Assembly: GCA_965216605.1 (NCBI GenBank)
Contig: CBDCGG010000002.1
Location: 519,871-583,870, forward strand
Reading direction: 5' to 3'
From: Alphaproteobacteria bacterium
GTDB lineage: Bacteria; Pseudomonadota; Alphaproteobacteria; JABAAW01
Length of the DNA stretch: 64,000 bases
Within the stretch, counting starts at the first letter, position 1. Each line of letters starts with the position of its first letter. The position numbers were made by a program, and so were the translations under genes. The notes below the pieces were generated by a model that saw nothing but the letters and a program-made list of their open reading frames with translations, did not search any database and was not told the DNA's origin. Shown piece by piece: positions 13,958 through 33,053 of the stretch.

Positions 13958-14031
13958 GGCGGAGTAGCTCAGTTGGTTAGAGCAACGGAATCATAATCCG
14001 TGTGTCGGGGGTTCAAGTCCCTCCTCCGCTA
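13958..14031 (+). tRNA. tRNA with CAU anticodon (tRNA-Met, or tRNA-Ile2/lysidine)
   Basis: A manual cloverleaf fits: acceptor GGCGGAG/CTCCGCT, D-stem GCTC/GAGC, anticodon stem ACGGA/TCCGT, loop ATCATAA (CAT anticodon) and T-arm GGGGG-TTCAAGT-CCCTC. A T-run follows. Confidence 0.8.
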
Positions 14032-14991
14032 TTTTTTGCGCTTTTTAGACCGCCCCCCTCCCTGAAAGACGGCGCGCACCACCCTGCCGTCGATGAGCGC
14101 AAGCCCAAAAGCAACGAGGGCAAAGCCCGCCCAAACCTGCAAGGTGAGAACCTCGTCCAAAAAAATAGCCCCCAAGGTGATGGCGATCGGCGCAATGATC
14201 AAGGTGCATAGCAGAAGGTTGGCAACGCCCGCCGCGCGTAGAAGGCTGTAGTAAAACAGATAGGCAACCGCTGTCGACACAACGCCCAGCCACAAAATCG
14301 CCGCCATCGAACGAATGTCGGCTGCCAAAAAGACTTGCAAGCCGTCGGGCTTTATCCCTATGAAGGGCACAAGAAACAGCGCGCCGCAAGTGGTCATGCC
14401 CGCCGCGTGGACGACGGGAGAACCCTCCCGTATCAGCATCTTGCCGCTCGCGCCGCCAAAAGCATAGCTTACAGCCGCCGCCAGCACGGCGTATTGCGCA
14501 AGGCTGGAAACATTGATCTGTTGCAAACTTTCAATCCCGATAACGACGACAACGCCGCAAAAGCCCGCGGCAACGCCGAGTGCTTTCGTCGTCGTCAACC
14601 TTTCGTCCTTGAAGAGAATCGCTGCCAGCAAGGTTCCGAAGATGGCGGTTGTCGCGTTGAGAACGGCGGCAAGCCCTGAATCGATTTGCTGCTGCCCCCA
14701 AGCGATGAGCGTGAAGGGTAGAGAGGTGATCAAAACGCCTCCCGCCGCCAAGCCACAAAGAAGACGAAGGCTTTTCGGCACGGCAAGCCCGCGAACAACA
14801 ACGATCGCCCAAAGAAGCACTGCGCCGATACTGATACGCAAAAAGGCGATCGCAGCGGGAGAAAAATTCTCCAGCGCAACATCGATCATAAGAAACGAGC
14901 TACCCCAACAGCAGCTTAACCCCAACAACAACAGCCAGCTACGCAAACTCATCACGATCCTTTTAAAAAAATTTGTCCCCCTTGTCCTCAT
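14029..14991 (-). CDS. EamA/DMT-family transporter
   Basis: It is a 10-TM protein with two EamA-like halves, glycine-rich helices, and a C-terminal basic tail. Confidence 0.7.
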   Translation of the reverse strand: MRTRGTNFFKRIVMSLRSWLLLLGLSCCWGSSFLMIDVALENFSPAAIAFLRISIGAVLLWAIVVVRGLAVPKSLRLLCGLAAGGVLITSLPFTLIAWGQQQIDSGLAAVLNATTAIFGTLLAAILFKDERLTTTKALGVAAGFCGVVVVIGIESLQQINVSSLAQYAVLAAAVSYAFGGASGKMLIREGSPVVHAAGMTTCGALFLVPFIGIKPDGLQVFLAADIRSMAAILWLGVVSTAVAYLFYYSLLRAAGVANLLLCTLIIAPIAITLGAIFLDEVLTLQVWAGFALVAFGLALIDGRVVRAVFQGGGRSKKRKK

Positions 14992-15050
14992 GCTAGCATG
15001 GGCGTAGGTTTTATCGACAACAAAGAGACTCTAACTAACCCACCAACCCC

Positions 15051-15818
15051 ATGCTTTACATAGCTTTCCTACGCTTCGTCTACAACCGCATTGTTTTAAA
15101 GTCTGGCGGCGTGATAAATTTCTTGTGGATTTGGAGCAAAAAGTCCTCTTCGTCAAAGGCATCCTCTGCTAGAAAAGGCGTTTTGTTTTGGCTTTTCTTG
15201 CCGTTGCGCTCCATCGTCAGCGTCGTGAGCGATTTCTTCTCTCGTGCGTTCGACAAACACTCGGAAGCAATCGCGCACGGGCGGTTGGCTACTCACTTAG
15301 GCGGACACTTCGGCTTTACGAATACCGACAAGGGAGCGTTAGTTTTTCTGAAAGAAACATTAGGCGTTGAATCGATGCTCGATGTGGGTTGCGGTCCCGG
15401 CAAGCAGGTGCGCCTTGCTCGTCGGCTCGGCATCGAGGCTTTCGGCGTCGACGGCGACTATACGCTGAAGTTTTCCGAACCCTATTTTTTCTTGCAAGAC
15501 TTCTCTAAGGGAAAGTTCTCTTGCGACAGAACATTCGATCTCGTTTGGTCGGTCGAATTTCTAGAGCATGTCGAAGAGCAATACCAGCCCTTTTACATGG
15601 CTACCTTTCGCTTGGCAAAAGCGGTTGTTTGCACAGCCGCTCTGCCAGGGCAGTTGGGCTTCCACCATGTCAACTGCCGCAAGCAAGCTTACTGGATCGG
15701 CGTGTTCAAAAAATACGGCTTTGTCTTCGACAAGACCAACACACAGAAGCTACGAGAACACAGCTCGATGGGACGCGACTTCATGCGCGATACGGGCATG
15801 CTTTTTATACGCAAATAA
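15051..15818 (+). CDS. Class I SAM-dependent methyltransferase (paralog 1; lower GC than surroundings)
   Basis: Motif I 'LDVGCGPG' and 'FGVDGD' are present, and it shares 'WSVEFLEHVEEQYQPFYM...VVCTAA.PG..G.HHVNC' with the 16899-17726 paralog. It is embedded in the cta cluster on the opposite strand. Confidence 0.55.
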   Translation: MLYIAFLRFVYNRIVLKSGGVINFLWIWSKKSSSSKASSARKGVLFWLFLPLRSIVSVVSDFFSRAFDKHSEAIAHGRLATHLGGHFGFTNTDKGALVFLKETLGVESMLDVGCGPGKQVRLARRLGIEAFGVDGDYTLKFSEPYFFLQDFSKGKFSCDRTFDLVWSVEFLEHVEEQYQPFYMATFRLAKAVVCTAALPGQLGFHHVNCRKQAYWIGVFKKYGFVFDKTNTQKLREHSSMGRDFMRDTGMLFIRK

Positions 15819-15942
15819 GCAAGAGAGCAGGCTAAGTAGCAGGCAATCGAGCGAGAAAGCGCTAGTCAGCCGCTCTGCTCTGTATTTTTTCCTGCTTTCT
15901 CTGCCTGCGGGCTACTGGCTGCTTTGTCAGTTGACCTAGGAG

Positions 15943-16770
15943 CTACGCGCCCCACCAATAGATGCATACGAAAAGGAATAGCCACACGGCATCGACGAAC
16001 TGCCAGTACCACGCGGCGGCTTCGAATCCGAAATGCTGTTGTGGAGTGAAATCCCCTTGCAAGGCGCGGTAGAGACATACGATCAGAAAGATCGTGCCGA
16101 TGATGACATGGAAGCCATGGAAGCCCGTTGCCATGTAGAAGGTCGAGCCGTAGATACCGTCTTTCAAAGCGAATGCGGCGTGCGTGTATTCGTACGCCTG
16201 CAAGGCGGTGAAGAGGATGCCCAAAGCGATCGTTATCGACAAGCCTTTGATGAGCCCTGCTCGATCACCCTCGATGAGCGCGCGATGCGCCCAAGTAGCG
16301 GTCGTTCCAGACAGCAACAAGACGACCGTGTTGGTGAATGGCAGTCCGAAAGCATCGAAGGGACGGATGCCTTCAGGCGGCCAGACGCCTCCGATCTGCT
16401 CGCTCGGAAAGAGCGACGCATTGAAGAATGCCCAAAAGAAGGCGAAGAAGAACATGACTTCGGAAAAGATGAAGAGCACCATGCCATAGCGCAACCCCAG
16501 CTGGACGACGGGTTTGTGGTCTCCCTTGTGCGCCTCGGCGATGACATCGCGCCACCAAAGCGCCACCGTCAGCAGAAGCAGAAAACTGCCGGGCAGTAGC
16601 AACCATCCTCCCCACGCCTCCAGCATCGAGGTGGGCGACTCTCCCAACAGGGAGGGATGCAGGTAGAGGATAAAACCCCCCATAAACATAAAGCCGGCAA
16701 GCGCGCCCAACGCAGGCCAAGGGCTAGGGTCGACCAAATGATAATCGTGCGAAGGTGTAGATGCAGACAT
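15943..16770 (-). CDS. ctaE: Cytochrome c oxidase subunit III
   Basis: It is a 7-TM protein with the conserved COX3 signatures 'FHGFHVIIGT' and 'WYWHFVDVVWLFLF'-like 'AAWYWQFVDAVWLFLFV'. Confidence 0.9.
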   Translation of the reverse strand: MSASTPSHDYHLVDPSPWPALGALAGFMFMGGFILYLHPSLLGESPTSMLEAWGGWLLLPGSFLLLLTVALWWRDVIAEAHKGDHKPVVQLGLRYGMVLFIFSEVMFFFAFFWAFFNASLFPSEQIGGVWPPEGIRPFDAFGLPFTNTVVLLLSGTTATWAHRALIEGDRAGLIKGLSITIALGILFTALQAYEYTHAAFALKDGIYGSTFYMATGFHGFHVIIGTIFLIVCLYRALQGDFTPQQHFGFEAAAWYWQFVDAVWLFLFVCIYWWGA

Positions 16771-16898
16771 GACATCCTCAAAACAAGTCTCGTGAAGTGT
16801 TGGATACCCCCCAACATCTCTATTGCGATTATAGACGACATGTCGGGCTAATGGTCAAAAATTTGTTTTCCTTTCCCTCCTCATGCTAGGATCACTCC

Positions 16899-17726
16899 AT
16901 GTTGTATTCCTTGAAAAAGTTCATCAAACACCTTTTGCGGCGGTTCCTACAATCTTTTTTGTATGTTGCTCTTAAAATAGGATTTTTGTCTTTTCTGTTC
17001 CATTCCCGAATACTAGGAAAACTTCACGATTGGGCGCAATTGCAAGAAAACAGAAAAAACCAAAAGAACGATGATGCTTCAAGGAAACCCTTAAGCGCTC
17101 TTCTGTCTTTGTTCCGCCTGTCGGCAACAAGAGCCATTCTCCATGCAAACAAGTTTTGCATGGGGCACTACGATGCTCTCAAAAAAACTGACTTGCCCTA
17201 TTACATGGGCGGTCACGGAGGAGTGACACACTCGGATGTCGGAGCCCTCGTTTTCCTGAAAAAAGAATTCTCTATACAATCGATGATCGATATCGGTTGC
17301 GGACCAGGAGGGCAAGTCGACGCAGCACGAAAAAACGGAATCGAATCTTTTGGTGTCGACGGCGACAAGAGCCTGAAATTCAACAAACCCTGGTTCTTTA
17401 TACACGATTTCACGAAGGGACACTTTGCTTGCAAACGACACTTCGATCTTGCCTGGTCGGTCGAGTTTCTTGAGCATGTCGAAGAAAAGTATCAACCCTT
17501 CTACATGTCTCTTTTTCAGCGTGCCAAAGTTGTCGTTTGCACGGCGGCACCTCCGGGCAAACCCGGATATCACCATGTCAATTGCCGTGAAATAGCCTAT
17601 TGGATCAAGGTTTTTAAAAAATACGGATTCGCCTTCGATACAAACGGCACCGAACAACTGAAAAAACACTCAAGCATGCAACGCGAGTTTATGCACGAGA
17701 CGGGCATGCTGTTCGTCAAAGCATAG
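16899..17726 (+). CDS. Class I SAM-dependent methyltransferase (paralog 2; markedly AT-rich 5' half)
   Basis: Motifs 'IDIGCGPGGQV', 'FGVDGD' and 'WSVEFLEHVEEKYQPFYM...VVCTAAPPGKPGYHHVNC' are present. It is paralogous to 15051-15818. Confidence 0.55.
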   Translation: MLYSLKKFIKHLLRRFLQSFLYVALKIGFLSFLFHSRILGKLHDWAQLQENRKNQKNDDASRKPLSALLSLFRLSATRAILHANKFCMGHYDALKKTDLPYYMGGHGGVTHSDVGALVFLKKEFSIQSMIDIGCGPGGQVDAARKNGIESFGVDGDKSLKFNKPWFFIHDFTKGHFACKRHFDLAWSVEFLEHVEEKYQPFYMSLFQRAKVVVCTAAPPGKPGYHHVNCREIAYWIKVFKKYGFAFDTNGTEQLKKHSSMQREFMHETGMLFVKA

Positions 17727-17756: not shown

Positions 17757-18398
17757 TTATTGTTTCTCGTCGCCCAAAGCTTGCGGAAAAAAACTGTACG
17801 AAAGCGTCACCGTATCGAAAGTGTCCCATTCCTCGTGATCGCGCAGCGCGGGGTCGAGAAAAAATACTACCTTCATCGCAACCTTTTCTTTGCCCCGCAG
17901 CGTTTGTTCGACAAAGCAAAAACACTCGATCTTGTGAAAATAGGCGCCCGCCTTAGCAGGCGTCACATTGTAGGTGGCGACCCCCGCAAGCGCATGCGAA
18001 GACAAATTCTCCGCCGTGTAGAAGGTCTCGTAGATCTCGCCAAGGGCAACCTCCATCTCGACCTGCGAGGGACCAAACCCCCAGTCTAGACCGTTCACAT
18101 TGCCATCGAAACGCACCCTTATCGTCTGCGCATCGCCTCGCTTCGTCAAGCCGAGCAGCTCCCGCAAATTGCTTCGTTGTGTCGTACCGCCGAAACCCGT
18201 CGTGCGGCAAAAAAGATCGTACAGCGGAACAGAGGCGAAACTCAATCCCAGCATGAGGCTGCCGAAAAAAAAGATCCTCAACGCAAGACGACGGTTGCGA
18301 ACACTCAATTCTTCCCCTCTCCCTCTCCCCCTTCCTTTCTCTTTCCGCTCACCTCTCACCACTTGCTTGGTTGCTTGCTTGTTGAATGTTCTCGTCAT
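17757..18398 (-). CDS. ctaG: Cytochrome c oxidase assembly protein CtaG/Cox11
   Basis: It has an N-terminal TM helix and the Cox11 copper-binding motif 'CFCF' in 'HKIECFCFVEQTL'. Confidence 0.85.
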   Translation of the reverse strand: MTRTFNKQATKQVVRGERKEKGRGRGRGEELSVRNRRLALRIFFFGSLMLGLSFASVPLYDLFCRTTGFGGTTQRSNLRELLGLTKRGDAQTIRVRFDGNVNGLDWGFGPSQVEMEVALGEIYETFYTAENLSSHALAGVATYNVTPAKAGAYFHKIECFCFVEQTLRGKEKVAMKVVFFLDPALRDHEEWDTFDTVTLSYSFFPQALGDEKQ

Positions 18399-18587: not shown

Positions 18588-19559
18588 TCAGATTGCAAGC
18601 CACTGCCAATTCTGCTGCTCCGCCACATGATCGACGATGCGCAAGGAGAACATCAGAATCATATAGACGATGGAAAACCCGAACAAGGCTCCTGCGGCGC
18701 GCAAGGAGGTTTCCTTTTTTCGGTTCAGCCAGAGCGCGTAGAAAATGAAGCGCAACGAAAGCACAAATGCGATGCCGCCGTAGATCCAGCTCGTGCCGCC
18801 GAGCCACGCGAAGGCGAGCGCAAGCGGCAAGAGCGTCAAGGAATAGAGGAGAATTTTCTGTTTTGTCTTTTTTTCTCCACACACGACAGGTAGCACAGGC
18901 ACCCCCGCGCGCTTGTAGTCGTCGCGACGCAAGAGTGCCAAAGCCCACGAATGCGGCGGCGTCCACAAGAAGATCAGCGCGCAGAGCAAGAGAGGCTCCA
19001 GAAAATTTGCCTGCGACGAAGGATTGGCGGCAAGCCACCCGATGAAAGGAGGAGCTGCGCCCGCCGCACCTCCGATGACGGTGTTGTAGACGGTGCGCCG
19101 TTTCAGAAACATGGTGTAGAAGACGGAATAGAAAAGAATCGTGCAAGCCAACAACGCCGCCGCCGCCCATCCCCCCGCAAGCCCCAACAGGGCGAAGGCA
19201 AACAACGAGAGGGTCATGGCGAACACAAACGCATCGGAAGGAGCAATCGTTCCACAAGCCACCGGTCTTGTGCGCGTGCGTAGCATGAGTCGGTCGATGT
19301 CGCGGTCGTACCACATGTTGAAGGCGGCAGCGCCACCTGCGCCCATGGCAACGCCGAGCAAAGCGATGATGTTCAAGACGATGTGGTTGTTGCCGTCCGC
19401 CAACACCATGCCGCAAAGGGCGGTGAAGGTTGTCAGCAGGAGAATTCGCGGCTTGGTGAGCGCGAGAAAATCTCCGACCTCGGAAGGTCTAGCGGCGACG
19501 CGAAACTCTGCGGTTGCGGTTGCGTGCGCCTGCAAGGAAGAACCGCGCGCCAAAGCCAT
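18588..19559 (-). CDS. ctaB: Protoheme IX farnesyltransferase (heme O synthase)
   Basis: It has the UbiA-family fold, the Asp-rich motif 'NMWYDRDID', and is located within the cta operon. Confidence 0.9.
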   Translation of the reverse strand: MALARGSSLQAHATATAEFRVAARPSEVGDFLALTKPRILLLTTFTALCGMVLADGNNHIVLNIIALLGVAMGAGGAAAFNMWYDRDIDRLMLRTRTRPVACGTIAPSDAFVFAMTLSLFAFALLGLAGGWAAAALLACTILFYSVFYTMFLKRRTVYNTVIGGAAGAAPPFIGWLAANPSSQANFLEPLLLCALIFLWTPPHSWALALLRRDDYKRAGVPVLPVVCGEKKTKQKILLYSLTLLPLALAFAWLGGTSWIYGGIAFVLSLRFIFYALWLNRKKETSLRAAGALFGFSIVYMILMFSLRIVDHVAEQQNWQWLAI

Positions 19560-19564
19560 TCAGG

Positions 19565-21226
19565 TCAGCGCGAGATGCGCGGCGGCGTCGAGAAGCTGTG
19601 GAAAGGCGGTGGTGTCGAGACCGTCCACTCCAAAGTGGTCGCGCCCGCACCCCAGTAGTTGTCGGCAACCTTCTGCTTGCCGCGACCGCGCACCAAAACG
19701 ACGACAACCGTAGCGACGAAGAACAAAGTGGAGGCGAAAGAAAGATAGCTGCCGTAGGAAGAGACCGCGTTCCAACCCGCGTAAGCTTCGTTGTAGTCGA
19801 TATAACGGCGCGGCATGCCTGCCAATCCCAAGAAATGCTGCGGGAAGAAGACGATGTTCACGCCGATAAAGGTTGTCCAAAAATGAAGTTTGCCTGCCCA
19901 GTCAGGGATGACGCAACCGCTCATCTTGGTAAACCAATAATAGAAGCCTCCGAAGATGGCGAACACCGCGCCGAGACTGAGCACATAGTGGAAATGTCCG
20001 ACGACATAGTAGGTGTCGTGCAGTTGCACATCGACACCTCCAAGCGCGAGGACGACCCCCGTCACGCCTCCGATGGTGAAGAGCCCGATGAAGCCGATCG
20101 CCCACAGCATAGGCACAGCAAATCTAATCGAGCCGCCCCACATGGTAGCGAGCCAGCTGAAGATCTTGATGCCCGTCGGCACAGCGATGATCATAGTACC
20201 AACGCTGAAGTAGAGTTTGAGCATAAAGCCCATACCGACGGTAAACATATGGTGCGCCCAAACGACGCTTCCCAAGAAACCGATGGCGATCATGGCAGAG
20301 ACCATGCCTAGGTAGCCGAAAATGGGCTTGCGCGAGAAGGTCGAGACGATGTGACTGATGATGCCGAAGGCGGGTAGAATCATGACATAAACTTCGGGGT
20401 GTCCGAAGAACCAAAATAGATGCTGAAACAAGAGCGGATCTCCTCCCCCCTCAGGCACGAAGAAGGATGTGGCAAAGTTGCGGTCGGCGAGCAGCATCGT
20501 GATGGCACCGCCGAAGACGGGCATGGTCATGACAAGCAGGAAGGCTGTGATCAACATCGACCAGGCGAACAGAGGCATGATGCGAAGTGTCATGCCTGGT
20601 GCGCGCATATTGAAGATGGTGACGATGAAGTTGATCGCACCCAGAACGGAGGAAGCACCTGCCAAATGCATGGCGACGATAGCGAGATCAACCGAAGCGT
20701 TCGCGTGTCCGAGCGTCCCAGACAAGGGCGGATAGAGCGTCCATCCCGTGCCTGCACCGCCAACAAAGAGGGAAAGCACCAAAAGCAAAAGGGAGGGAGG
20801 GAGAAGCCAAAAACTGATGTTGTTCATGCGCGGAAAAGCCATGTCGGGCGCGCCGATCATGAGGGGGACAAACCAATTGCCGAACCCTCCGATCAAGGCG
20901 GGCATGACGGTGAAAAAGACCATGATCAAGCCGTGCGCGGTGATGAAGACATTCCATATGTGTCCATCGGGAGCGCCCGCGTTGAGAAAATACTGCACGC
21001 CCGGTTCTTGCAACTCCAGGCGCATAAGAAAAGAAATGCCACCACCAACCAGTCCTCCCACAATGGCGAAGACCAAGTACATCGTTCCGATGTCCTTGTG
21101 GTTCGTCGAAAAAAGCCAGCGTCCGATACCGTAGGGACGATGCTCTGCGTGAGAGGGAGATTTCCTTGAAGCAGCCTTTGCTTTTTTCTTTCCGTTCATG
21201 GTGATGCTTGCCATGGGGTTTTTCAC
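19565..21226 (-). CDS. ctaD: Cytochrome c oxidase subunit I
   Basis: The 553-aa protein carries canonical COX1 motifs ('[14 protein letters not shown]', 'WAHHMFTVG', '[13 protein letters not shown]'). Confidence 0.95.
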
Positions 21227-22203
21227 TCCTGTGCGTTGTGCGTTTGTGTGGCGAGAAGGTCGCCTTGCCGATTATTGTCTATATTCGCGGCGAATTGTTT
21301 TTTGGCTTTTCTGAGCCATATGACGAACTCGGCTTTGGAGACGACACGCACTTCGACGGGCATATAGGCGTGTCCCGCTCCGCAGAGCTCCGTGCAGAAT
21401 CCGTAATAGACGCCTTTCTTTTCGGCGGTGAGCCAAGTTTCGTTCACGCGCCCTGGCACGCCATCGATCTTGACGGCGAAGCTCGGCACAGACCACGAGT
21501 GCAACACATCGGCGGCGGTGACGAGCACGCGCACCTTAACGCCGACGGGCAGGACGAGCGCGTTGTCGGTCTGCAGCAGGCGTTTGGATTTGTCTTTGAG
21601 ATCGTCTCCTTGGAGCAGGTTGGAGTCGAAGGTGAGTCCGTCGTGGTCGGGATATTCGTAAGACCAATACCACTGATGTCCCGTAGCTTTGACGGTGAGG
21701 GAGGCTTCTGACACATCTTCGATGGCGCGCATGAGGTTGAAGGAAGGCACGAAGAGCACAACGAGAATAGCGACAGGGATGAGCGTCCAAATAACTTCCA
21801 GACGAACGTTGTGCGTCCTTTTCGAGGGCTTGGGGTTTCGTTTCTCGGAAAAGCGCCAACAGATGAACCCTCCCAGCACAAAGACAAGGAGGCAGATGGC
21901 AGTGAGGACGGGCATCAGAAGGTTGTCGTGAAAGTCGAAGGCTTGACGAGCGAGCGACGAGGCAGGCTCTTGAAACCCAGTCTGCCAATTGTGCGAGGCG
22001 CCCACCGCCTCACCCTCTTGAGCAAGCGCTTGAGAAAACCCTTGAGAAAACGATTGGAAGAGCAGAAAAACGACAGCAATCACAAACGCTTTGGTAAACG
22101 TTTTTGCAAAAACTTGCGCAAGAACCCGCGCCTTTACGATACGGACAAGATAAACAAAACTCATGCCCCTATCATAGATACAACGACACGGTCTTTTCAA
22201 CAA
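21223..22203 (-). CDS. ctaC: Cytochrome c oxidase subunit II
   Basis: It has two TM helices plus a cupredoxin CuA centre '[12 protein letters not shown]' and 'HSWSVPSF'. Confidence 0.9.
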
Positions 22204-22236: not shown

Positions 22237-23907
22237 CTAGGGTTTGCATAACATGAGTCCATAGAAGGGTTTTAGTTTCTCTGCTTTTTCAGGACATTGG
22301 GAGAGGGTAGGCAAGCGCACGCCACTCAAACCGCTGTCGTAATAATTGAAAAAGATCGGTATCGCCCAGTCTACTAGGCTCGTATCAGGCACGACAAACC
22401 ACCCCCCATGCTTCTCCGCCTGTCGCACATCGTATGAGCGCAAGAATGCATACTTGCCATCCTTTCTCATCCTTTGGACGGAGATATAAAGCAGGCAGGC
22501 AACAACAATAAACACGACGATTCTTTGAACGCGCGAAAAAGGAGGTTGCTTCTCGTCGGGCGCGAGCAGGAAAACAAGAAAGAGCACAGGTAGCCACCAG
22601 TTCTGCGGCGCATGGCGAAAAGAAAAACCCACATTGAACGAAAGTATCGAGACGGCGACCCCTGCCAAGACGAGCAACCCTCCTCGGTGTCGCACAAAAA
22701 ACACCAGTGTCAAACACAGAAGCAAGGCGCCGCTAAACAAAGAAGAAAAACCATGCAGAAACGATTGCAAGTTCAGAGAAGAAAACGGCGGTAAAGGAAC
22801 GGGAGTCCAATTGGAAGTTTCTGCCGTTTTTGAAAACAGCGCAATCCACCATTTCTCGTACTGCGACTTTCCTGAAAAGACGGGGCTTGATTCCTCCAAA
22901 AAAACTATCTCTTGTTTCTCTTCGCCGAACACGATAGCGGGATAAAAAGGATGGACAGGGTTTCCATGCAGGTAAGCGTTTGTCGAGTAAGGGAAGAAGC
23001 CGAATAAGACGACCCCCAAAATCGTAGCCGCACTCCCCAGCCCCGCCAGTTGCAAAAGCGTCTTTCGGCTTGCGCCTCGCCGTGCGCCGTAGGCAAGAGC
23101 CGTCATCCCCAAAACACCCCCAAAAACAAGCCCTGTGAACTTGATGTTGACAAGCAGCACGAGAAGACACGCGACATAAACAGCTGTCCTTAGTCGTATC
23201 GTTCGGCTTTGTGCTTTGCCCTCCGAGACAAAACAAAGCATGAGCAAGAAAGCGCTCAGCAGCGTCGAGACAAGCAAGCCGTCGTTGAGGTGGGAGAAAA
23301 AACACATGGCAACAATGGGGTTTGCCGCAAGCAGAGCAGCCAAAACATTGCGCCAAGAACGAGACAAGCGCGGCAGGGTTTCGAAGAAACGTCTTGCGCA
23401 CAGAAACGCTGCCAGAGCGGATAGAACCGAAAAGGCAAAGCTCGCCTCGAATGTTTGCGTCCATACAATCAGCGAGGCAGAAAGCAGCCAGTGCGCTGCG
23501 GGGTAAACATGAGTGACCCAACTGCTGGGTTGCCAGTAAGGATTGACATCCTCCAACAAATCAAGAATTGCTTGAGCATGGTAGCCGCGAGAATCCCATT
23601 CTCTGTCCAAGGTGAAACTCAAAGCCCATGCCGCGAGCGCAAAGACTGCCAAAAGCAGCAACAAGGTTGCAGCCAATCTCTGCCATTTTTCTTCTCGATG
23701 CAGTGCGACGACCGCTCCTCCCCACAGCAACAGCCCTGTCGGAAAGACCCAACGACCCCTCTCTATATCGATGCCTATATCGGCAAGCAGAGCAAATGCC
23801 GCCGTCATGTACAGAACGGGCAGAAACAACACCGCTGCTGTCAGCAACAGCTCTTCCACGAAAAAACTCCGTATTTTTCTGACCTGCTCGGCTTTCAGTT
23901 TTTTCAT
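22237..23907 (-). CDS. Paralog 1 of a 5-member tandem family of ~560-aa polytopic membrane proteins (putative GT-C-type glycosyl/arabinosyltransferase; function inferred from context only)
   Basis: It has about 13-14 predicted TM helices and a C-terminal soluble domain ending 'GGWFVVPD...NYYDSGLSGVRLPTLSQCPEKAEK'. Its start codon overlaps the stop of paralog 2 (TCAT). Family motifs are 'SFFVEELLL..VLFLP.LYMTAAFALL.DIGID.ERGRWVFPTGLLLWG', 'HWLLSASL.VWT' and 'NIKFTGLVFGG.LG.TALAYGARRGASRKT'. Confidence 0.75.
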   Translation of the reverse strand: MKKLKAEQVRKIRSFFVEELLLTAAVLFLPVLYMTAAFALLADIGIDIERGRWVFPTGLLLWGGAVVALHREEKWQRLAATLLLLLAVFALAAWALSFTLDREWDSRGYHAQAILDLLEDVNPYWQPSSWVTHVYPAAHWLLSASLIVWTQTFEASFAFSVLSALAAFLCARRFFETLPRLSRSWRNVLAALLAANPIVAMCFFSHLNDGLLVSTLLSAFLLMLCFVSEGKAQSRTIRLRTAVYVACLLVLLVNIKFTGLVFGGVLGMTALAYGARRGASRKTLLQLAGLGSAATILGVVLFGFFPYSTNAYLHGNPVHPFYPAIVFGEEKQEIVFLEESSPVFSGKSQYEKWWIALFSKTAETSNWTPVPLPPFSSLNLQSFLHGFSSLFSGALLLCLTLVFFVRHRGGLLVLAGVAVSILSFNVGFSFRHAPQNWWLPVLFLVFLLAPDEKQPPFSRVQRIVVFIVVACLLYISVQRMRKDGKYAFLRSYDVRQAEKHGGWFVVPDTSLVDWAIPIFFNYYDSGLSGVRLPTLSQCPEKAEKLKPFYGLMLCKP

Positions 23908-25586
23908 TGAGGTTTGCACAATGTCAGTCCACTGTAGAGTTCGCGCTTCGGAGCATTGTACGGACATTGGGACATCGTAGGCAAGCGCACGCCGCTCAAA
24001 CCGCTATCGTAGTAATTGAAAAAGATCGGTATATGCCAATCTACCAGCATATTTGTGTCGGGAACGACAAACCACCCTCCCTCTTGTTCCGCTTGTTGCA
24101 CAACCTGTGCAAGCCATAGTGCCTCCCTGTGACGGAACCTCAGCCTTTGGACGGAGAGATAAAGCAGGCAGGCAACAACAACGAACACCACGATTCTTTG
24201 GGCTCTTTGTGCGCGCAAAAAAGAAGATTGCTTCTCGTCGGGCGCGAGCAGAAAGACAAGCAAGAGCACAGGCAACCACCAGTTCTGCGGCGTGAGGCGA
24301 AACGCGAAGCTCACACGCGTCGAGATAACGGATACCATAACCCCTGCCAAGACGAACCACGCTCCTCGGTGTCGCACAAAAAACACCAGCGTCAGACACA
24401 GAAGTAGCGAGCCGCTAAACAAAGTGCCGAAGCCGCCATAAAAAGCCTCGTATTGACGCAAAGAAAACGGCGGCAAAGGAGCAGGAGTCCAATAATCTTT
24501 CCCTCTTTCCGAGAACAGCGAAATCCACCATTTCTCGTACGAAGACTTGGCGTAGAATTCTTTGTCAAAAAGCCTGCCGACGATGTCCTTTGTTTTATCT
24601 TTCTCGGCAAAGGAGATCGCAGGGTAGAAGGGGTTTTTATGCAGCGCCATGTTCGTCGCGTAAGGGAAGAAGCCAAATAGGGCGACCCCCAAGATCGCCG
24701 CACCGCTGCCAAGCCCCGCAAGATGTACAAGCGTCTTTCTACTTGCTCCGCGTCGCGCGCCGTAAGCCAGTGCCGTCAGCCCCAGTATGCCGCCGTAGAC
24801 GAGCCCCGTGAACTTGATGTTGACGAGGAAGATTAATAAAGACGCAATACAAAAGGCGGCTCGAAAGCGTATCGTTCGACTTTGTGCTTTACCCTCAGAG
24901 ACAAAGCACAACATGAGCATGGATACACTCAATAACGTCGAGACAAGCAAGCCATCGTTATAGTGGACGAAGAAACACCATGTTGCGACGGGGTTGGCAG
25001 CGAGCAGGAATGCCAAAACATTGCGCCAAACACCAGACAAGTGCGATAGGGTTGGCGTTGCCAAAAAACGCCTTGCGCACAGAAACGCCGCCACGACAGC
25101 AACGCCTGTCAAGGCAAAGCTTGCCTCGAAACTTTGCGTCCATACAATCAGCGAGGCAGAAAGTAGCCAATGCGCTGTGGGATAAGTGTAGGTGATCCAG
25201 CTTCTAGGCTCCCAGTAGGGATTGACTCCCTCCAACAAGCCAAGAATTGCAAGAGCATGGTAGAAGCGTGAGTCTTGTCCCCTATCCAAATAAAGACTCG
25301 TCGCCCACGCCGTGAGCGCGAATACCGCCAAGAACAACAGCAGCGTTGCCACCAACTTCTGCCACTTTTCTTCTCGATGCAGTGCCACGATCGCTATGCC
25401 CCACAGCAACAGCCCTGTCGGAAAGACCCAACGACCCCTCTCCATATCGATGCCTATATCGGCAAGCAGAGCAAATGCCGCCGTCATGTACAAGATCGGC
25501 AGAAACAACACCGCTGCTGTCAGCAACAGCTCTTCCACGAAAAAACTCCGTATTCTTCTGACCTGCTCGACCTTCAGTTTTTTCAT
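23904..25586 (-). CDS. Paralog 2 of the tandem polytopic membrane-protein family
   Basis: It has the same architecture. Its N-terminal ~60 aa are nearly identical to paralog 1 ('MKKLK.EQVRRIRSFFVEELLLTAAVLFLP'). Its stop overlaps the paralog 1 start, and its start overlaps the paralog 3 stop. Confidence 0.75.
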   Translation of the reverse strand: MKKLKVEQVRRIRSFFVEELLLTAAVLFLPILYMTAAFALLADIGIDMERGRWVFPTGLLLWGIAIVALHREEKWQKLVATLLLFLAVFALTAWATSLYLDRGQDSRFYHALAILGLLEGVNPYWEPRSWITYTYPTAHWLLSASLIVWTQSFEASFALTGVAVVAAFLCARRFLATPTLSHLSGVWRNVLAFLLAANPVATWCFFVHYNDGLLVSTLLSVSMLMLCFVSEGKAQSRTIRFRAAFCIASLLIFLVNIKFTGLVYGGILGLTALAYGARRGASRKTLVHLAGLGSGAAILGVALFGFFPYATNMALHKNPFYPAISFAEKDKTKDIVGRLFDKEFYAKSSYEKWWISLFSERGKDYWTPAPLPPFSLRQYEAFYGGFGTLFSGSLLLCLTLVFFVRHRGAWFVLAGVMVSVISTRVSFAFRLTPQNWWLPVLLLVFLLAPDEKQSSFLRAQRAQRIVVFVVVACLLYLSVQRLRFRHREALWLAQVVQQAEQEGGWFVVPDTNMLVDWHIPIFFNYYDSGLSGVRLPTMSQCPYNAPKRELYSGLTLCKPQ

Positions 25587-27292
25587 TGAGGTTTGCACAA
25601 TGCCAGCCCATCGAGGGGTCTCATTTTCTCTGCTTTGTCTGGGCATTGAAGCATCGTGGGCAAGCGCACGCCGCTCAAACCGCTGTTGTAGTAACGGAAA
25701 AAGGCTTCTGTGTGGTGTTTCATCTGCAGATCGGGCACGACAAACCACCCTCCTTGCCGCTCCGCCTGTCGCACAACTTGCGACAAGGCGACTGCCAGAT
25801 TGCCATGATACATCAGCCTTGCGACGGAGATATAAAGCATGCAGGCAACAACGACAAACACGATAGCTCTTTGCGCACGCGACAAAGAGCGCGACAAAGG
25901 AGATGACTTCTCGTCAGGCGCGAGCAGAAAGACGAGAAAGAGCATCGGCAGCCACCAGTTCTGTGGCGCGTGGCGAGAAGAAAGACCCACCCCGAACGAA
26001 AGAATCGAGACGCCAACCCCTGCCAAAACAAGCAACCCTCCTCGATGACGCACAAAAAACACCAGCGTCAGACACAGAAGTAGCGAGCCGCTAAACAAAG
26101 AGCCGAACCCGTCCAAAAAAGATATAGGGCTCAGCGAAGAAAACGGCGGCAAAGGAGCAGGAACTCTCCAATCTCCTTGCGTTTGTGAAAACAGCCCAAT
26201 CCACCATTCCTCGTATTGCAACCTTTCTAAAAAAACGGGGTTTGCTTCCTCCAAAAAAGCTATCTCTTGTTTCCCTTCGCCGAACACGATAGCAGGATAA
26301 AAAGGATGGACAGGGTTTCCATGCAGGTAAGCGTTCGTCGAGTAAGGGAAGAAGCCGAACAGAGCGACCCCCAAGAGAGCCGCACCACTGCCCAGTCCTG
26401 CAAGGCGGACAAGCGTCTTTCGGCTTGCGCCGCGCCTGACCCCGTAAGCCAGCGCCGTCAGTCCCAAAGCACCCCCGAAGACGAGCCCCGTGAACTTGAT
26501 ATTGATGAGAAATACAAGAAGACACACGATACAAAAGGCTGTCCGTCGCAAGCGTCGTTTGTTTTCCCTTTGAGAGCCTTCTTCGCAGACAAAGCAGAGC
26601 ATCAGCATAAAAACGCTCAAAAGCACGGATACCAAAAAGCCGTCGTTGTAGTTCATAAAAAAACAAGAGAACGCGATGGGGTTGCCAGCAAGTAACGCGG
26701 CGAGAAGATTGCGCTTCGAACGAGATGAAGCACGAGACAAGTGTGGCAGCGTTGCCAAGAAACGCCTTGCGCACAGAAACGCCGCCACGACAGCAATGAC
26801 GGTGAAGACAACGCTAGTCGTAAGGAGTTGTGTCCACACAACAAGCGAGGCAGAAAGCAGCCAGTGCGCTGTGGGATAAGTGTAGGTGATCCAGCTTCTA
26901 GGCTCCCAGTAGGGATTTCTTCCCTCCAACAAGCCAAGGATTGCACGAGCATGGTAGTGGCGAGAATCCCATTCAATATCCGCGAGGAAACTCGCCGCCC
27001 ACACCGCGAGCGCGAATATTGCCAAAACCAGCAATAGGGTTGCGAGCCGTCTCTGCCATTTTTCCTCTCGATGCAGTGCCGCGACCGCTATACCCCACAG
27101 CAGTAGCCCTGTCGGAAAAACCCAACGACCCCTCTCCATATCGATGCCGATGTCCGCAAGCAGAGCAAACGCCGCCGTCATGTACACAATGGGCAGAAAC
27201 AACACCGCCGCTGTCAGCAACAGCTCTTCCACGAAAAAACTCCGTATTCTTCTGACCTGCTCGGCTTTCAGTTTTTTTACTAGGGTTTGCAC
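25583..27292 (-). CDS. Paralog 3 of the tandem polytopic membrane-protein family
   Basis: It has the same architecture. The canonical ATG of paralogs 1 and 2 is replaced by GTA (Val), so a GTG 4 codons upstream is used as the start. Confidence 0.7.
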   Translation of the reverse strand: MQTLVKKLKAEQVRRIRSFFVEELLLTAAVLFLPIVYMTAAFALLADIGIDMERGRWVFPTGLLLWGIAVAALHREEKWQRRLATLLLVLAIFALAVWAASFLADIEWDSRHYHARAILGLLEGRNPYWEPRSWITYTYPTAHWLLSASLVVWTQLLTTSVVFTVIAVVAAFLCARRFLATLPHLSRASSRSKRNLLAALLAGNPIAFSCFFMNYNDGFLVSVLLSVFMLMLCFVCEEGSQRENKRRLRRTAFCIVCLLVFLINIKFTGLVFGGALGLTALAYGVRRGASRKTLVRLAGLGSGAALLGVALFGFFPYSTNAYLHGNPVHPFYPAIVFGEGKQEIAFLEEANPVFLERLQYEEWWIGLFSQTQGDWRVPAPLPPFSSLSPISFLDGFGSLFSGSLLLCLTLVFFVRHRGGLLVLAGVGVSILSFGVGLSSRHAPQNWWLPMLFLVFLLAPDEKSSPLSRSLSRAQRAIVFVVVACMLYISVARLMYHGNLAVALSQVVRQAERQGGWFVVPDLQMKHHTEAFFRYYNSGLSGVRLPTMLQCPDKAEKMRPLDGLALCKPQ

Positions 27293-28956
27293 AATGCCAG
27301 CCCATGGATGGGTATCATTTTCTCTGCCTTTTCAGGGCATTGGGAGAGGGTAGGCAAGCGCACGCCACTAAAGCCGCTGTCGTAGTAACGGAAAAAGGCT
27401 AAAGCCTTCCGTTTCATCAGCAGATCGGGGACAAGGAACCATCCTCCCTGCTGTTCCGCTTGTTTCACAACCCGCATTGTCTTGATTGCTGCCACGCCAT
27501 AAAAATTTGCGCTTTGGAAAGAGTCGTAGCACAAGCAAGCGACAACAGCGAACACCGCGATTCTTTGGGCTCTTTGCGCGCGCGACAAAAGATTTTTCTT
27601 CTCGTCGGGCGCGAGCAAGAAAACAAGAAAAAGTATAGGCATCCACCAGTTTTGCGGCGTGAGGCGGAAATGGAAACTGGCAGATGTCGAGAGAATGGAT
27701 ACCATGATACCTGCCAAAACGAACCACGCTCCTCTGTGTCGCACAAAAAACACCAAGCTCATACACAGAAGCCACGAGCCACCAAAAAGAGGTCCTAGGC
27801 TTGAGATGAAGGATGTGGGACGCAAAGAAGAAAAAGGCGGTAGAGGAGCGAGACGCCACTCGCCGTTCACCGGTTTGGAGAACAGCGAAAGCCACCATTT
27901 CTCGTAATGCGACCTTTTATAAAATTCTGGGGACACAAGGGGACGGGTTATGTCGCTTGTTTTCTTTCCCTTGTCAAAGAAGATTGCGGGGTAGAAGGGA
28001 TTTTTATGTAGCGCAGTGTTCGTCGCGTAAGGGTAGAAGCCGAATAGGGCGACCCCCAAAATAGCAGCCGCACTCCCCAACCCCGCCAGTCGCAAGAGCG
28101 TTGCGCGGCTTGCGCCACGCCGTGCGCCGTAAGCCAGCGCTGTCAGCCCTAAGATGCCGCCGAAGACGAGCCCCGTGAACTTGATATTGACGAGCAACAC
28201 GAGAAGACACACGATATAAACGGCGGCTCGAAGCTGTGTCGTTCGACTTTGCCTCTTGCCTTCCGAGACAAAGCAAAGCATGAGCAAGAAAACACTCAAC
28301 AGCGTCGAGACAAAAAAGCCATCGACACTGTGGACGAAGTAGCACCATATTGCGATGGGGTTGGCAGCGAGCAGGAACGCCAAAACATGACGCCAGAAAC
28401 GGGACAAGTGCTGTAGCGTTGCCAAATAACGCCTTGCGCACAGGAAGGCTGTCAGAACGGACAGAGCCGTGAAAGCAAAGCTCGCGGTGAAAAGTTTTGT
28501 CCATACAATCAGCGAGGAAGAAAGCAGCCAGTGAGCAGCGGGGTAGGTGTAGTAGACATAACGCGTGCCCCAAGTGTTGGGATGACGATAGGGATTTCCT
28601 CCATCCAACAACGCCAAAATAGATTGTGCATGGTAGGTGCGACCATCCCACCCTCTGTCCAAAAAGAAACTCGTAGCCCACGCCGCGAGCGCAAAGCCTG
28701 CCAATAACAGCAACAGCGTTGCCGCTTGTTTGTGCCACCTTTCCTCTCGATGCAGTGCCGCGACCGCAACTCCCCACAGCAGCAACCCCGTAGGAAAAAC
28801 CCAACGACCCCTCTCCATATCGATGCCTATGTCGGAAAGCAGAGCAAATGCCGCCGTCATGTACAAGACAGGCAGAAACAACACCGATGCCGAAAGCAAC
28901 AGCTCTTCCGAGAAAAAACGCCTTGCTCTTCCGATGGAAGCACCTATGGCTTGCAT
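27280..28956 (-). CDS. Paralog 4 of the tandem polytopic membrane-protein family
   Basis: It has the same architecture. A ~230-nt stretch of its 5' end (about 28680-28915) is near-identical to paralog 5 (about 30355-30595). It overlaps both neighbours by 13 nt. Confidence 0.75.
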   Translation of the reverse strand: MQAIGASIGRARRFFSEELLLSASVLFLPVLYMTAAFALLSDIGIDMERGRWVFPTGLLLWGVAVAALHREERWHKQAATLLLLLAGFALAAWATSFFLDRGWDGRTYHAQSILALLDGGNPYRHPNTWGTRYVYYTYPAAHWLLSSSLIVWTKLFTASFAFTALSVLTAFLCARRYLATLQHLSRFWRHVLAFLLAANPIAIWCYFVHSVDGFFVSTLLSVFLLMLCFVSEGKRQSRTTQLRAAVYIVCLLVLLVNIKFTGLVFGGILGLTALAYGARRGASRATLLRLAGLGSAAAILGVALFGFYPYATNTALHKNPFYPAIFFDKGKKTSDITRPLVSPEFYKRSHYEKWWLSLFSKPVNGEWRLAPLPPFSSLRPTSFISSLGPLFGGSWLLCMSLVFFVRHRGAWFVLAGIMVSILSTSASFHFRLTPQNWWMPILFLVFLLAPDEKKNLLSRAQRAQRIAVFAVVACLCYDSFQSANFYGVAAIKTMRVVKQAEQQGGWFLVPDLLMKRKALAFFRYYDSGFSGVRLPTLSQCPEKAEKMIPIHGLALCKP

Positions 28957-30701
28957 AGCACCAACCCATAGACGAGTCTGCGTGTCTCTGCTTTTTCAGG
29001 ACATTGGGGCATAGTAGGCAAGCGCACGCCACTCAAGCCGCTGTCGTAGTAATCGAAAAAGATTTGACTTTCGCTATTTTTAATCTGCGGATCAGGAACA
29101 ATGAACCACCCTCCCTGCCGCTCCACCTTTCGCACAACCCGCGCCGTCTCGATCGATGCCCCACCATAAAATTTGACGCTTTGGATTGAGGCATATAACA
29201 AGCAGGCGACAACGACTAAGATCACGATTCTTTGGGCTCTTTGCGCGCGCGACAAAAGGTTTTTCTTCTCGTCGGGCGCGAGCAGAAAGACGAGAAATAG
29301 CACAGGCAACCACCAGTTCTGCGGCGCGTGGCGAAAAGAAAAACCCACCTCGAACAAAAATATTGAGGCGGCAACCCCTGCCAAAACGAGCCAAGCTCCT
29401 CGGTGTCGCACAAAAAACACCAAGGTCAGACATAAAAGCAAGGCGCCGCTAAACAAAGAGCCGAACCCATAAAGAAAATCTCCGGGTCTAAGTGAAGAAA
29501 AAGGCGGCAAAGGAACGGGATCCCAACCACTTGCTGACCCACTTTTGGAAAACAATGAAATCCACCATTTTTCGTACTGCGATCTTCCTGAAAAGACAGG
29601 GCTTGAATCCTCCCAAAAAACTATCTCTTGTTTCTCTTCGCCGTACACGATAGCAGGATAGAAAGGATGGACAGGGTTGCCATGCAGGTAGGCGTTCGTC
29701 GCGTACGGGTAGAAGCCAAACAGCGCGACCCCCAAGATCGTAGCCGCACTGCCCAGCCCTGCAAGTTGTACAAGCGTCTTTCGACTTGCGCCGCGTCGTG
29801 CGCCGTAAGCAAGCGCTGTCAGCCCTAAGATGCCGCCGAAGACGAGCCCCGTGAACTTGATATTGATGAGAAACACGAGAAGACACGCGATACAAAAGGC
29901 GGCTCTAAGCCGTGTTGTTCGACTTTGCCTCTTGCCTTCCGAGACAAAGCACAACATGAGCAAGAAGACACTCAGTAGCGTGGATACAAGCAAACCATCG
30001 GTATGGTTGGTAAAGAAGCACCATGTTGCGATGGGGTTGGCAGCGAGCAGGAACGCCAAAACATTACGCCAGAAACGAGACAAGTGCTGTAGCGTTGCCA
30101 AATAACGCCTTGCGCAGAAAAACGCCGACAGAGTGGCTACGACCGTAAAGACAAAGCTTACCTCAAACATGTGCGTCCATACGATCAACGAGGCAGAAAG
30201 CAACCAGTGAGCCACAGGGTAGGTCAAAATGACCCACAACTTGAGCCAACTGTTAGGGTGCCGGTAGGGATTGACTCCCTCCAACAAGTCAAGGATTGCC
30301 TGAGAATGGTAGTCGCGAGAATCGTAGTTGTTGTCCAAAAGGAAACTCGTAGCCCACGCCGCGAGCGCAAAGCCTGCCAATAACAGCAACAGCGTTGCCG
30401 CTTGTTTGTGCCACCTTTCCTCTCGATGCAGTGCCACGACCGCAACTCCCCACAGCAGCAACCCCGTAGGAAAAACCCAACGACCCCTCTCCATATCGAT
30501 GCCTATGTCGGAAAGCAGAGCAAATGCCGCCGTCATGTACAAGACAGGCAGAAACAACACCGATGCCGAAAGCAACAGCTCTTCCGAGAAAAATCGCTCG
30601 CCACAAGACGACACGCTCCCTTCCCACGCCTTGACACGGCGTTGTAAAGACGACGAAAGGCGACAGCACGCATCGGCGATTGTTGGCAAAAGATGTTTCA
30701 T
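28944..30701 (-). CDS. Paralog 5 (first in transcription order) of the tandem polytopic membrane-protein family
   Basis: It has the same architecture and a longer N-terminal extension. It starts 48 nt from tRNA-Ser on the opposite strand. Confidence 0.75.
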   Translation of the reverse strand: MKHLLPTIADACCRLSSSLQRRVKAWEGSVSSCGERFFSEELLLSASVLFLPVLYMTAAFALLSDIGIDMERGRWVFPTGLLLWGVAVVALHREERWHKQAATLLLLLAGFALAAWATSFLLDNNYDSRDYHSQAILDLLEGVNPYRHPNSWLKLWVILTYPVAHWLLSASLIVWTHMFEVSFVFTVVATLSAFFCARRYLATLQHLSRFWRNVLAFLLAANPIATWCFFTNHTDGLLVSTLLSVFLLMLCFVSEGKRQSRTTRLRAAFCIACLLVFLINIKFTGLVFGGILGLTALAYGARRGASRKTLVQLAGLGSAATILGVALFGFYPYATNAYLHGNPVHPFYPAIVYGEEKQEIVFWEDSSPVFSGRSQYEKWWISLFSKSGSASGWDPVPLPPFSSLRPGDFLYGFGSLFSGALLLCLTLVFFVRHRGAWLVLAGVAASIFLFEVGFSFRHAPQNWWLPVLFLVFLLAPDEKKNLLSRAQRAQRIVILVVVACLLYASIQSVKFYGGASIETARVVRKVERQGGWFIVPDPQIKNSESQIFFDYYDSGLSGVRLPTMPQCPEKAETRRLVYGLVLCKP

Positions 30702-31684: not shown

Positions 31685-31719
31685 CGTTTTGCTCCTTTTA
31701 TGTTTGGATTGTCTTTCTG

Positions 31720-33036: not shown

Positions 33037-33053
33037 AACTTCCTCGCCATCTT

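Follow-up and report, generated by a model that had tools for sequence, protein, structure and literature searches.

Two paralogous methyltransferase genes at the cytochrome oxidase locus of an uncultured alphaproteobacterial lineage, and their largely phage-borne family

The closest described systems to the two genes reported here, MT1 and MT2, are the generic class I S-adenosylmethionine (SAM)-dependent methyltransferases (Methyltransf_11/Methyltransf_23), the Hen1 methyltransferases, the UbiG/Coq3 enzymes and the methyltransferases of phage glycan-modification modules. In Hen1 the metal ligands are an E-x-x-E-H motif and one further His, located in short helices that follow beta4 and beta5 respectively, and this site holds the ribose 2',3'-diol of the substrate (PMC10781085). 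The phage modules, carried by T4-like myoviruses, combine TylF-type O-methyltransferases with GT8, Capsule_synth and GDP-mannose dehydratase proteins, and the relatives of MT1 and MT2 in such modules are uncharacterised. MT1 and MT2 lie at the cta cluster for an aa3-type cytochrome c oxidase, in a 64,000-nucleotide stretch (the window) of Alphaproteobacteria bacterium assembly GCA_965216605.1 (contig CBDCGG010000002.1, positions 519,871 to 583,870 of the forward strand). The evidence supports well that both are old, vertically inherited residents of this locus. A joint explanation that adds a function, in which the locus-resident paralogs are membrane-tethered, possibly metal-dependent O-methyltransferases of envelope glycans, is given about an even chance of being right. 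The two genes are:

15051..15818, + strand: MT1, SAM-dependent methyltransferase of 255 amino acids (aa), MTa lineage, intact open reading frame (ORF)
16899..17726, + strand: MT2, paralog of 275 aa, MT2 lineage, between ctaG and ctaE, intact ORF

Fold, motifs and relation to described enzymes

MT1 and MT2 share 50% identity and 69% positives over 260 columns (BLASTP, E 4e-93), with about 62-64% identity in the C-terminal catalytic core. No third methyltransferase copy was found within the 64-kb window. MT1 consists of an N-terminal hydrophobic, helical extension of ~90 aa and a catalytic core of ~165-180 aa. The original prediction, made from the DNA letters, that the two descend from one ancestral gene is borne out, and the motifs that it quoted in identical order are present, apart from the end of MT1, which reads DTGMLFI and not ETGMLF.

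Across 58 family members 26 columns are invariant, including DxGCGPG, GxDGD, ExxEH and HH. Motif I is LDVGCGPG in MT1 and IDIGCGPG in MT2 (D131, G133, C134, G135 and G137 invariant), and the acidic motif after strand 2, FGVDGD (G152, D154, G155 and D156 invariant), aligns with GVDGD of the S-adenosylhomocysteine-bound structure 3e8s. E189, E192 and H193 of the E-x-x-E-H motif after strand 4 are likewise invariant, as are H225 and H226 in the loop after strand 5, which sequence alignment pairs with a His of Hen1 other than its fourth metal ligand. The AlphaFold2 model of MT2 (predicted local distance difference test score 87.8, core >92) has two long N-terminal helices and a canonical seven-stranded core (strands 128-132, 149-154, 166-168, 182-187, 209-214, 244-246 and 270-274). 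Foldseek returned 439 PDB matches at E<=0.001, and the best 50 of the 439 are all class I methyltransferases. Both proteins pass the Pfam Methyltransf_11 gathering score of 21.2 (MT1 29.8 bits, MT2 21.9 bits), and both fall under the Methyltransf_23 cut-off. MT1 and MT2 are thus class I SAM-dependent methyltransferases, sharing DxGCGPG, the acidic GVDGD after strand 2 and the seven-stranded fold with the generic enzymes. They differ from these in that no curated subfamily matches, all NCBIfam equivalogs being far under their cut-offs; in the family's own invariant N-terminal GGHxxxTxxD, its ExxEH...HHVNC signature and its YW motif; and in the hydrophobic extension of ~90 aa, which the cellular copies add.

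In structure, Hen1 methyltransferase domains come out narrowly ahead (PDB 3jwi, 3jwj, 4xcx; E 1e-6, template modelling (TM) score 0.55 normalised by target), the top PDB matches all lying at E ~1e-6 and TM ~0.5. The family VEFLEH aligns with IEVIEH of Hen1, and the invariant His pair after strand 5 recalls the place of the fourth Hen1 ligand; the distal His lies at a spacing of 32 aa in this family and of 45-60 in Hen1. Sequence similarity to Hen1 is non-significant (E 0.036-0.9, with 0.036-0.09 for the full protein), and the family profile reaches Hen1 at E 0.0014, behind ten other methyltransferases. The family also lacks the Pnkp partner and the RNA-binding domain of Hen1, its fusions and neighbours being glycan enzymes and not RNA-repair proteins: neither Pnkp nor an RNA-binding domain occurs among the annotated neighbours in the window, the relatives and the phage loci, or among the extra domains of 52 multidomain members. 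The Hen1 likeness is a resemblance and not membership, because the similarity is non-significant, Hen1 is not recovered with a C-terminal-half profile, and UbiG has E-x-x-E-H as well.

UbiG/Coq3 is weakly similar at the profile level over motifs I to IV and also has E-x-x-E-H (MEMLEH). It differs in lacking the GGH and HHVNC motifs of the family, MT1 and MT2 score 16.1 and 12.9 bits against the UbiG model TIGR01983 (cut-off 102.95), and their genes have no ubiquinone-pathway context. Neither protein matches the TylF (PF05711)/Methyltransf_24 profile; TylF proteins occur as separate neighbours or fusion partners of family members. PDB sequence searches with MT2, the family profile and the C-terminal-half profile gave generic methyltransferases or nothing, Foldseek against BFVD gave no specific clade (best viral match 22% identical), and NCBIfam, PHROGs and PADLOC gave no meaningful family, the sole defence-system match scoring 14.5 bits. 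Neither the curated families nor the solved structures and viral models offer a close match to MT1 or MT2.

Locus history in related genomes

A protein search yielded 590 relatives. The closest belong to metagenome-assembled genomes named Alphaproteobacteria bacterium, with chromosomes of about 1.6-1.9 Mb. By CtaD these form a tight uncultured group (at least 79% identity), followed by Kiloniellales/Rhodospirillales such as Pelagibius at 73-75%. The locus was recovered from eight related genomes, seven of them including usable sequence on either side of the methyltransferase gene, and all related genomes found carry one to three copies at the cta locus. The layouts, with nucleotide identity to the window, are:

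L006, ~81%: EamA(-) MT(+) ctaE(-) MT2(+) ctaG(-), as in the window
L005, ~90%: MT1 ortholog (95% core identity), no MT2
L004, ~91%: single MTb (third type), co-directional after ctaE, no MT2
L001, ~80%: ctaE > MTa > MTb > EamA on one strand, no MT2
L007, ~80%: both L001 copies, and MT2 on the opposite strand
L002, ~82%: MT2 convergent with ctaG
L096 (43% GC) and L098 (49% GC), more distant: ctaC-D-B-G-E-SURF1(-), one MT(+), EamA(-)

The genes around MT1 and MT2 in the window are:

14029..14952, - strand: EamA-type transporter of the DMT superfamily (Pfam EamA 1.2e-31), divergent from MT1
15943..16770, - strand: ctaE, cytochrome c oxidase subunit III (Pfam COX3 7.9e-97), with a methyltransferase gene on either side
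17757..18398, - strand: ctaG, Cox11 copper chaperone (Pfam CtaG_Cox11 1.8e-50)
18588..19559, - strand: ctaB (Pfam UbiA 5e-57)
19565..21226, - strand: ctaD (CtaD homologs)
21223..22203, - strand: ctaC, inferred from synteny with COX2-annotated genes of relatives

The last three (18588..22203, - strand) are the remainder of the oxidase cluster. The EamA start was placed at MSLRSW from comparison with the relatives. MT1 is convergent with ctaE across a gap of 124 nucleotides (nt), and MT2 with ctaG, with 30 nt between the stop codons. The convergent placement on either side of ctaE was described correctly in the original prediction, which also held that the two genes interrupt the operon. This applies to MT2, which lies inside the cluster, and not to MT1, which lies at the outer edge between ctaE and EamA. 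The ancestral layout is an opposite-strand methyltransferase gene, divergent from EamA and just outside the cta cluster, because L096 and L098 carry it; the ancestral copy sits between the cluster and EamA, and MT1 is therefore at the ancestral edge position. The pairing of EamA with a methyltransferase gene is kept across the whole lineage, and is divergent in L096 and L098 as well.

Neighbour-joining with bootstrapping, applied to 124 family members, unites the alphaproteobacterial copies in a single clade (100/100) and divides them into three paralog lineages, MT2 (bootstrap 100), MTa with MT1 of the window (91) and MTb (100), the order of duplication among them being weakly resolved (68). 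MT1 orthologs are present in L005, L006, L007 and L001, and MT2 orthologs in L002, L006 and L007. Between the window and L006 the synonymous divergence (dS) is 0.56 for MTa and 0.72 for MT2, and 0.46-0.73 for EamA and the cta genes. The ratio of nonsynonymous to synonymous divergence (dN/dS) of orthologs is 0.13-0.26 overall, 0.17-0.25 for MT1 and 0.22-0.26 for MT2, which indicates purifying selection.

The base composition was compared with that of 56 ORFs of the window (GC 0.557, standard deviation (sd) 0.027; GC at third codon positions (GC3) 0.623, sd 0.057). MT1 has a GC of 0.501 and a GC3 of 0.621, equal to the window mean, its deficit being confined to codon positions 1 and 2, i.e. to amino-acid composition. 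MT2 has the lowest GC of any window gene (0.452) and a GC3 of 0.511, ~2 sd under the mean, and at its 5' end the 300-nt window 16800-17099 has 39.7% GC. Lower GC is found in every relative (MT2 type 0.45-0.47, MTa 0.49-0.52, MTb 0.47-0.50), GC3 is low in all MT2 orthologs too (0.47-0.56), and in L096 and L098 the methyltransferase GC3 equals the local GC3. Both genes are thus AT-richer than their flanks, MT2 the more so, as originally described, although the flanks have about 55-58% GC and not ~60%. A recent foreign origin is not supported by this dip: MT1 has a normal GC3, the low GC is constant among relatives, and it is local-like at third positions in the lower-GC relatives.

MT2 is an accessory copy in the gap between ctaG and ctaE. 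Its site is empty in L005, L004 and L001, and L001 and L007 differ by a ctaE dS of 0.027, with MT2 in L007 only. The three empty spacers (68 nt) show homology among themselves and with the part of the occupied spacer nearest ctaE, a pattern that fits recombination in the conserved flanks swapping alleles with and without MT2. The window copy is also shortened. All other MT2-lineage proteins have 379-442 aa, and the window MT2, with 275 aa, lacks an N-terminal domain of ~120-170 aa that is conserved in L002, L006 and L007 (P0002-P0006; FRVPWSVRFFLRR..., FRVPWSVRFFLRRGDPHVLSAFLKVSRL...) and contains RRGGQA-type repeats in P0003 and P0005. This domain has no Pfam match and no homolog anywhere in the window. 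In comparison with L006 and L007, a conserved upstream box is followed at once by a gap of ~440 bp, which makes the window gene a 5'-shortened allele, and the shortened protein keeps all 26 family-invariant residues. The box (AAAAATTTGT...TCCTCATGCTAG-) is common to MT1 and MT2:

14967..14999, + strand: MT1 upstream box, with direct-repeat families, in the divergent EamA/MT1 intergenic region
16857..16892, + strand: MT2 upstream box, second copy (AAAAATTTGT...TCCTCATGCTAGGAT), directly 5' of MT2

The MT1 box is conserved in L005, L004 and L006, and a homologous box precedes the long MT2 genes of L006 and L007. The MT1 box holds a perfect 12-bp palindrome, CATGCTAGCATG (14989-15000). The closer relatives keep it, the AT-rich L096 and L098 lack it, and ahead of MT2 it is half-conserved. 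The MT2 box has AGGA 8 nt ahead of the ATG. No sigma-70 consensus match was found in the MT1 box; the box or its palindrome may be a shared promoter or operator. Across the four intergenic spacers, promoter and terminator scans yielded no match to sigma-70 and RNA folding yielded z-scores near 0, the 30-nt gap between MT2 and ctaG has no significant hairpin, and a search with Rfam near MT1 and MT2 gave no riboswitch or other RNA apart from tRNA-Met and tRNA-Ser. No integrase, transposase or target duplication was found at 14-18 kb of the window, and of the inverted or direct repeats that might mark cassette borders, a search of the window found only the MT1/MT2 upstream box.

Several side observations concern the same region. 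MT1 (15051-15818) has a dS of 0.087 to L005 10001-10768, and the flanking EamA, ctaE, ctaG and ctaB have a dS of 0.23-0.29, which suggests a recent recombination or gene-conversion tract over MT1. MTb of L004 lies between two direct-repeat copies of 87 bp from the ctaE 3' end (9846-9932 and 10784-10870, 94% identical), the one insertion scar seen, and a 30-nt remnant of an inverted MTa with its upstream box is left beside EamA; this looks like a single-crossover (Campbell-type) cassette replacement. L006 has 8-9 tandem copies of the 12-nt unit GTGATTCCTTGG at 7953-8043, between the EamA start and the MT1 upstream box. The tRNA-Met (CAT) gene at 13958-14031 (+ strand) abuts the stop-codon end of EamA on the opposite strand with a 3-nt overlap. 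SURF1 directly follows ctaE in L096 (10006-10815) and L098 (9946-10875); in the closer group it is missing at the corresponding site (window 15819-15942) and from the whole window, and is either elsewhere in the genome or lost.

Phage relatives and glycan enzymes

Outside the alphaproteobacterial lineage, the ~180-aa core is overwhelmingly viral and lacks the N-terminal extension. IMG/VR contains at least 503 confirmed relatives, all aligned only to residues ~90-275, and in an exhaustive search limited to E <= 1e-30 the family comprised 164 clusters at 50% identity. The mean GC at the phage loci is 0.39. The contigs with P0108 and P0064 encode ThyX/ThyA, both subunits of ribonucleotide reductase, SegE homing endonucleases, an M15 endolysin, deoxycytidine monophosphate deaminase and Tad3. 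Among GenBank phages one, the T4-like Caulobacter phage Cr30, has a copy, the hypothetical protein AGS81145.1 (43.5% identity). A literature search on the Cr30 protein and on Hen1 residue numbers gave nothing on this methyltransferase family. Transfer from a phage to a cell, into the ancestor of the lineage, is plausible and would be the simplest reading. To this extent the horizontal origin originally proposed stays plausible, as an ancient event, given that the nearest outside kin are phage-borne; a recent insertion or island is not indicated.

Annotated phage neighbours are enriched for GDP-mannose 4,6-dehydratase/epimerase (8), GT8 (7) and TylF O-methyltransferases (5), and further neighbours include Capsule_synth, a DegT aminotransferase, UDP-glucose dehydrogenase, mannose-6-phosphate isomerase and 2-oxoglutarate oxygenases (up to 9). 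The 52 multidomain members carry as fused domains a second methyltransferase, Glycos_transf_2 (4), Capsule_synth (3), sulfotransferases (3), Glyco_transf_7C (2), TylF (2), GT29, GT8, Gly_transf_sug and TPR; none of them is fused to a nucleic-acid domain. The window genes share with the phage glycan modules a core that is 43-55% identical. They differ in being chromosomal and vertically inherited, in forming three paralog lineages, in their N-terminal extension and in their position beside respiratory genes. The sugar O-methylation that had been suggested for MT1 and MT2 thus gains independent support from phage neighbourhoods and domain fusions.

On the host side, the link to glycans consists of five GT-C-like genes and a set of DprE1/DprE2/UbiA-like genes at the locus:

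22237..30701, - strand: five tandem paralogs of a polytopic membrane protein of 558-614 aa, upstream of ctaC (weak DUF2142/TgpA_N, GT-C-like)
30899..34144, no single strand: DprE2/DprE1/UbiA-like block adjoining the GT-C-like array, assigned from the Pfam matches of its three genes
30902-31663, - strand: DprE2-like short-chain dehydrogenase (Pfam adh_short 2.8e-25)
31723-33036, - strand: DprE1-like FAD oxidase (Pfam FAD_binding_4 3.7e-24, and ALO)
33227-34141, + strand: UbiA-family prenyl/phosphoribosyl transferase (Pfam UbiA 1.4e-21), divergent

The array paralogs are about 70-75% identical in DNA and appear as internal repeats by blastn. Their copy number varies, with one in L006 and at least four in L007, where one gene is annotated DUF2142. 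The mycobacterial DprE1/DprE2/UbiA system is the decaprenyl-phosphate-arabinofuranose donor pathway, and we take the window set to resemble synthesis of a polyprenyl-phosphate-pentofuranose donor. A tRNA-Ser gene (30749-30837) lies between the array and the DprE-like block. A GC-rich intergenic repeat of ~100-130 bp with a palindrome (GCGCGCTTACGCGCG ... GGGGGG..AAA..CCCCCC) occurs in both orientations at 2470-2597, 11853-11972 and 50593-50709 and also in related loci; it looks like a repetitive extragenic palindromic element or a miniature inverted-repeat transposable element.

Weighing of the explanations

The preferred explanation is as follows. An ancestral methyltransferase would have been acquired at the 3' end of the cta cluster before the members of the lineage diverged, and this one gene would have given rise to the three old paralog lineages MTa, MTb and MT2. 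The cellular copies would have gained the N-terminal helical, partly hydrophobic segment of ~90 aa, which may tether the enzyme to the inner face of the membrane. Because the layout of E-x-x-E-H and HH resembles the four-ligand, diol-holding metal site of Hen1, the enzyme may O-methylate, with the help of a metal, a hydroxyl of a sugar in an envelope glycan or in its lipid-linked precursor. MT1 would have remained at the ancestral position, on the opposite strand, divergent from EamA and behind the palindromic box, and MT2 would be gained or lost via recombination in the conserved flanking genes, being represented here by an allele without the extra N-terminal domain. The position beside the oxidase would be a legacy of local duplication, with no sign of an oxidase function. 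Envelope-glycan sugars as the substrate class, a choice guided by the neighbourhood and fusion statistics, are roughly a coin toss.

Several points weigh against this explanation. We know of no characterised member of the family, so that the substrate class is drawn from those statistics only. The commonest single phage neighbour is a Bax1-I membrane protein (13 of 59), which is uninformative on glycans, and only a minority of the phage neighbours are annotated. No specific clade emerges from the structure and profile searches; Hen1 is not retrieved with the C-terminal-half profile, and E-x-x-E-H, occurring in UbiG-type enzymes also, is not diagnostic. The most hydrophobic 19-aa N-terminal stretches (Kyte-Doolittle 1.68 for MT1 residues 44-62 and 1.73 for MT2) are borderline for a transmembrane helix and differ in position between the two proteins. 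The GC3 of 0.47-0.56 in all MT2 orthologs needs more than vertical residency to explain it. The strict cta-MT-EamA linkage across the lineage would also fit a functional tie to the oxidase or to EamA.

A bolder form of the preferred explanation is unlikely. According to this form, the methyltransferase genes and the expanding GT-C-like array flanking cta constitute a hotspot of surface-glycan diversification, in which recombination in the conserved core genes on either side would exchange, invert, remove and restore paralogous cassettes of a phage-derived, Hen1-style, metal-dependent sugar O-methyltransferase. The substrate might then be the furanose diol of a polyprenyl-phosphate-linked pentose made by the adjacent DprE1/DprE2/UbiA-like genes. 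If true, the altered methylation of envelope glycans would belong to an arms race with phages that carry the same enzyme.

No feature of the locus is better conserved than the divergent EamA-MT pair, and for that reason a methylate-and-export pair is the most credible rival. Here the methyltransferase would act, much as TehB or thiol methyltransferases do, on a small metabolite or toxicant, which EamA would remove or supply. The pair is kept even where everything past EamA differs, the palindromic box lies between both genes, and TehB and small-molecule methyltransferases are among the fold matches. Many other class I enzymes, however, match the fold at least as well as TehB does, the phage homologs are not paired with DMT transporters, and the palindrome is not conserved in L096 and L098. 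EamA itself gives only generic NCBIfam exporter models, far under their cut-offs. Overall, such a pair is considered improbable. A role of EamA as a functional SAM transporter was also considered and was rejected, NCBIfam giving generic exporter models alone.

The original prediction also raised modification of an oxidase subunit, to which no evidence links MT1 or MT2. In its wider form, with a cytochrome c oxidase subunit, an assembly factor, haem or the respiratory quinone as the methyl acceptor, this proposal is in keeping with the strict linkage to ctaE in every lineage genome examined, with the membrane location that the N-terminal hydrophobic segment suggests, and with the weak profile similarity and the common E-x-x-E-H of UbiG. 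Yet hundreds of phage homologs have no respiratory context and are fused to or adjoin glycan enzymes, in the ancestral layout the methyltransferase strand is opposite to that of cta, near-identical strains can do without MT2, the UbiG model gives 16 bits against a cut-off of 103, and no outgroup CtaD-bearing taxon occurs among the methyltransferase matches. The proposal is regarded as quite improbable.

Recent horizontal acquisition, by foreign insertions or by one insertion and a duplication into a canonical cta operon, was the explanation originally offered and is now very unlikely. In its favour both genes are under the GC of their flanks, with MT2 the lowest in the window and ~2 sd under the GC3 mean, the MT2 site is empty in the ~90% identical L005 and L004 and in L001, and the family is mainly phage-borne, at loci with the low mean GC given above. 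In the comparison with relatives, however, L006 agreed with the window in both genes, their sites and their orientations, and the seven other contexts had at least one copy, with MT2 at the same site in L007 and L002 and a dS equal to that of the flanks; this is largely the outcome that the original prediction had named as its refutation. The alphaproteobacterial copies also form one clade, the GC3 of MT1 is normal, the same GC offset recurs in all relatives, L096 and L098 have a fully host-like GC3, and no mobility genes or flanking repeats were seen in the window.

A Hen1-like RNA 3'-terminal ribose 2'-O-methyltransferase of phage origin, acting in RNA repair or protection, is very improbable as well: bacterial and human Hen1 domains are the top, recurring Foldseek PDB matches, ExxEH aligns with the Hen1 metal ligands, HH is invariant after strand 5, and phage copies are often near nucleotide-metabolism and replication genes, but the similarity is non-significant and missed by the C-terminal-half profile, no Pnkp, RNA ligase or RNA-binding domain occurs among the Pfam-annotated neighbours or fused domains, the cellular copies have a hydrophobic N-terminus, and the informative fusions are all to glycan enzymes.

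For MT1 and MT2 the paralogy, the fold, the conservation, the purifying selection and the history of the locus are shown, as are the affinity to phage proteins and the associations with glycan enzymes; the membrane tethering, the metal dependence and the substrate class are inferred. The two proteins represent an uncharacterised subfamily of a very well-known kind of enzyme, and the history of the locus is informative and not surprising. It provides a clean natural example of paralog cassettes that vary in number, orientation and domain content between near-identical genomes, set inside an otherwise fixed respiratory gene cluster. It also calls for caution with base composition, as a GC dip that is kept in all relatives and rests on codon positions 1 and 2 is no sign of recent transfer. 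The family itself is large and uncurated, and environmental T4-like phages commonly carry it; glycosyltransferases, capsule-synthesis enzymes and sulfotransferases recur as its fusion partners, which points to a function open to testing, and Caulobacter phage Cr30 is a cultured system for such tests.

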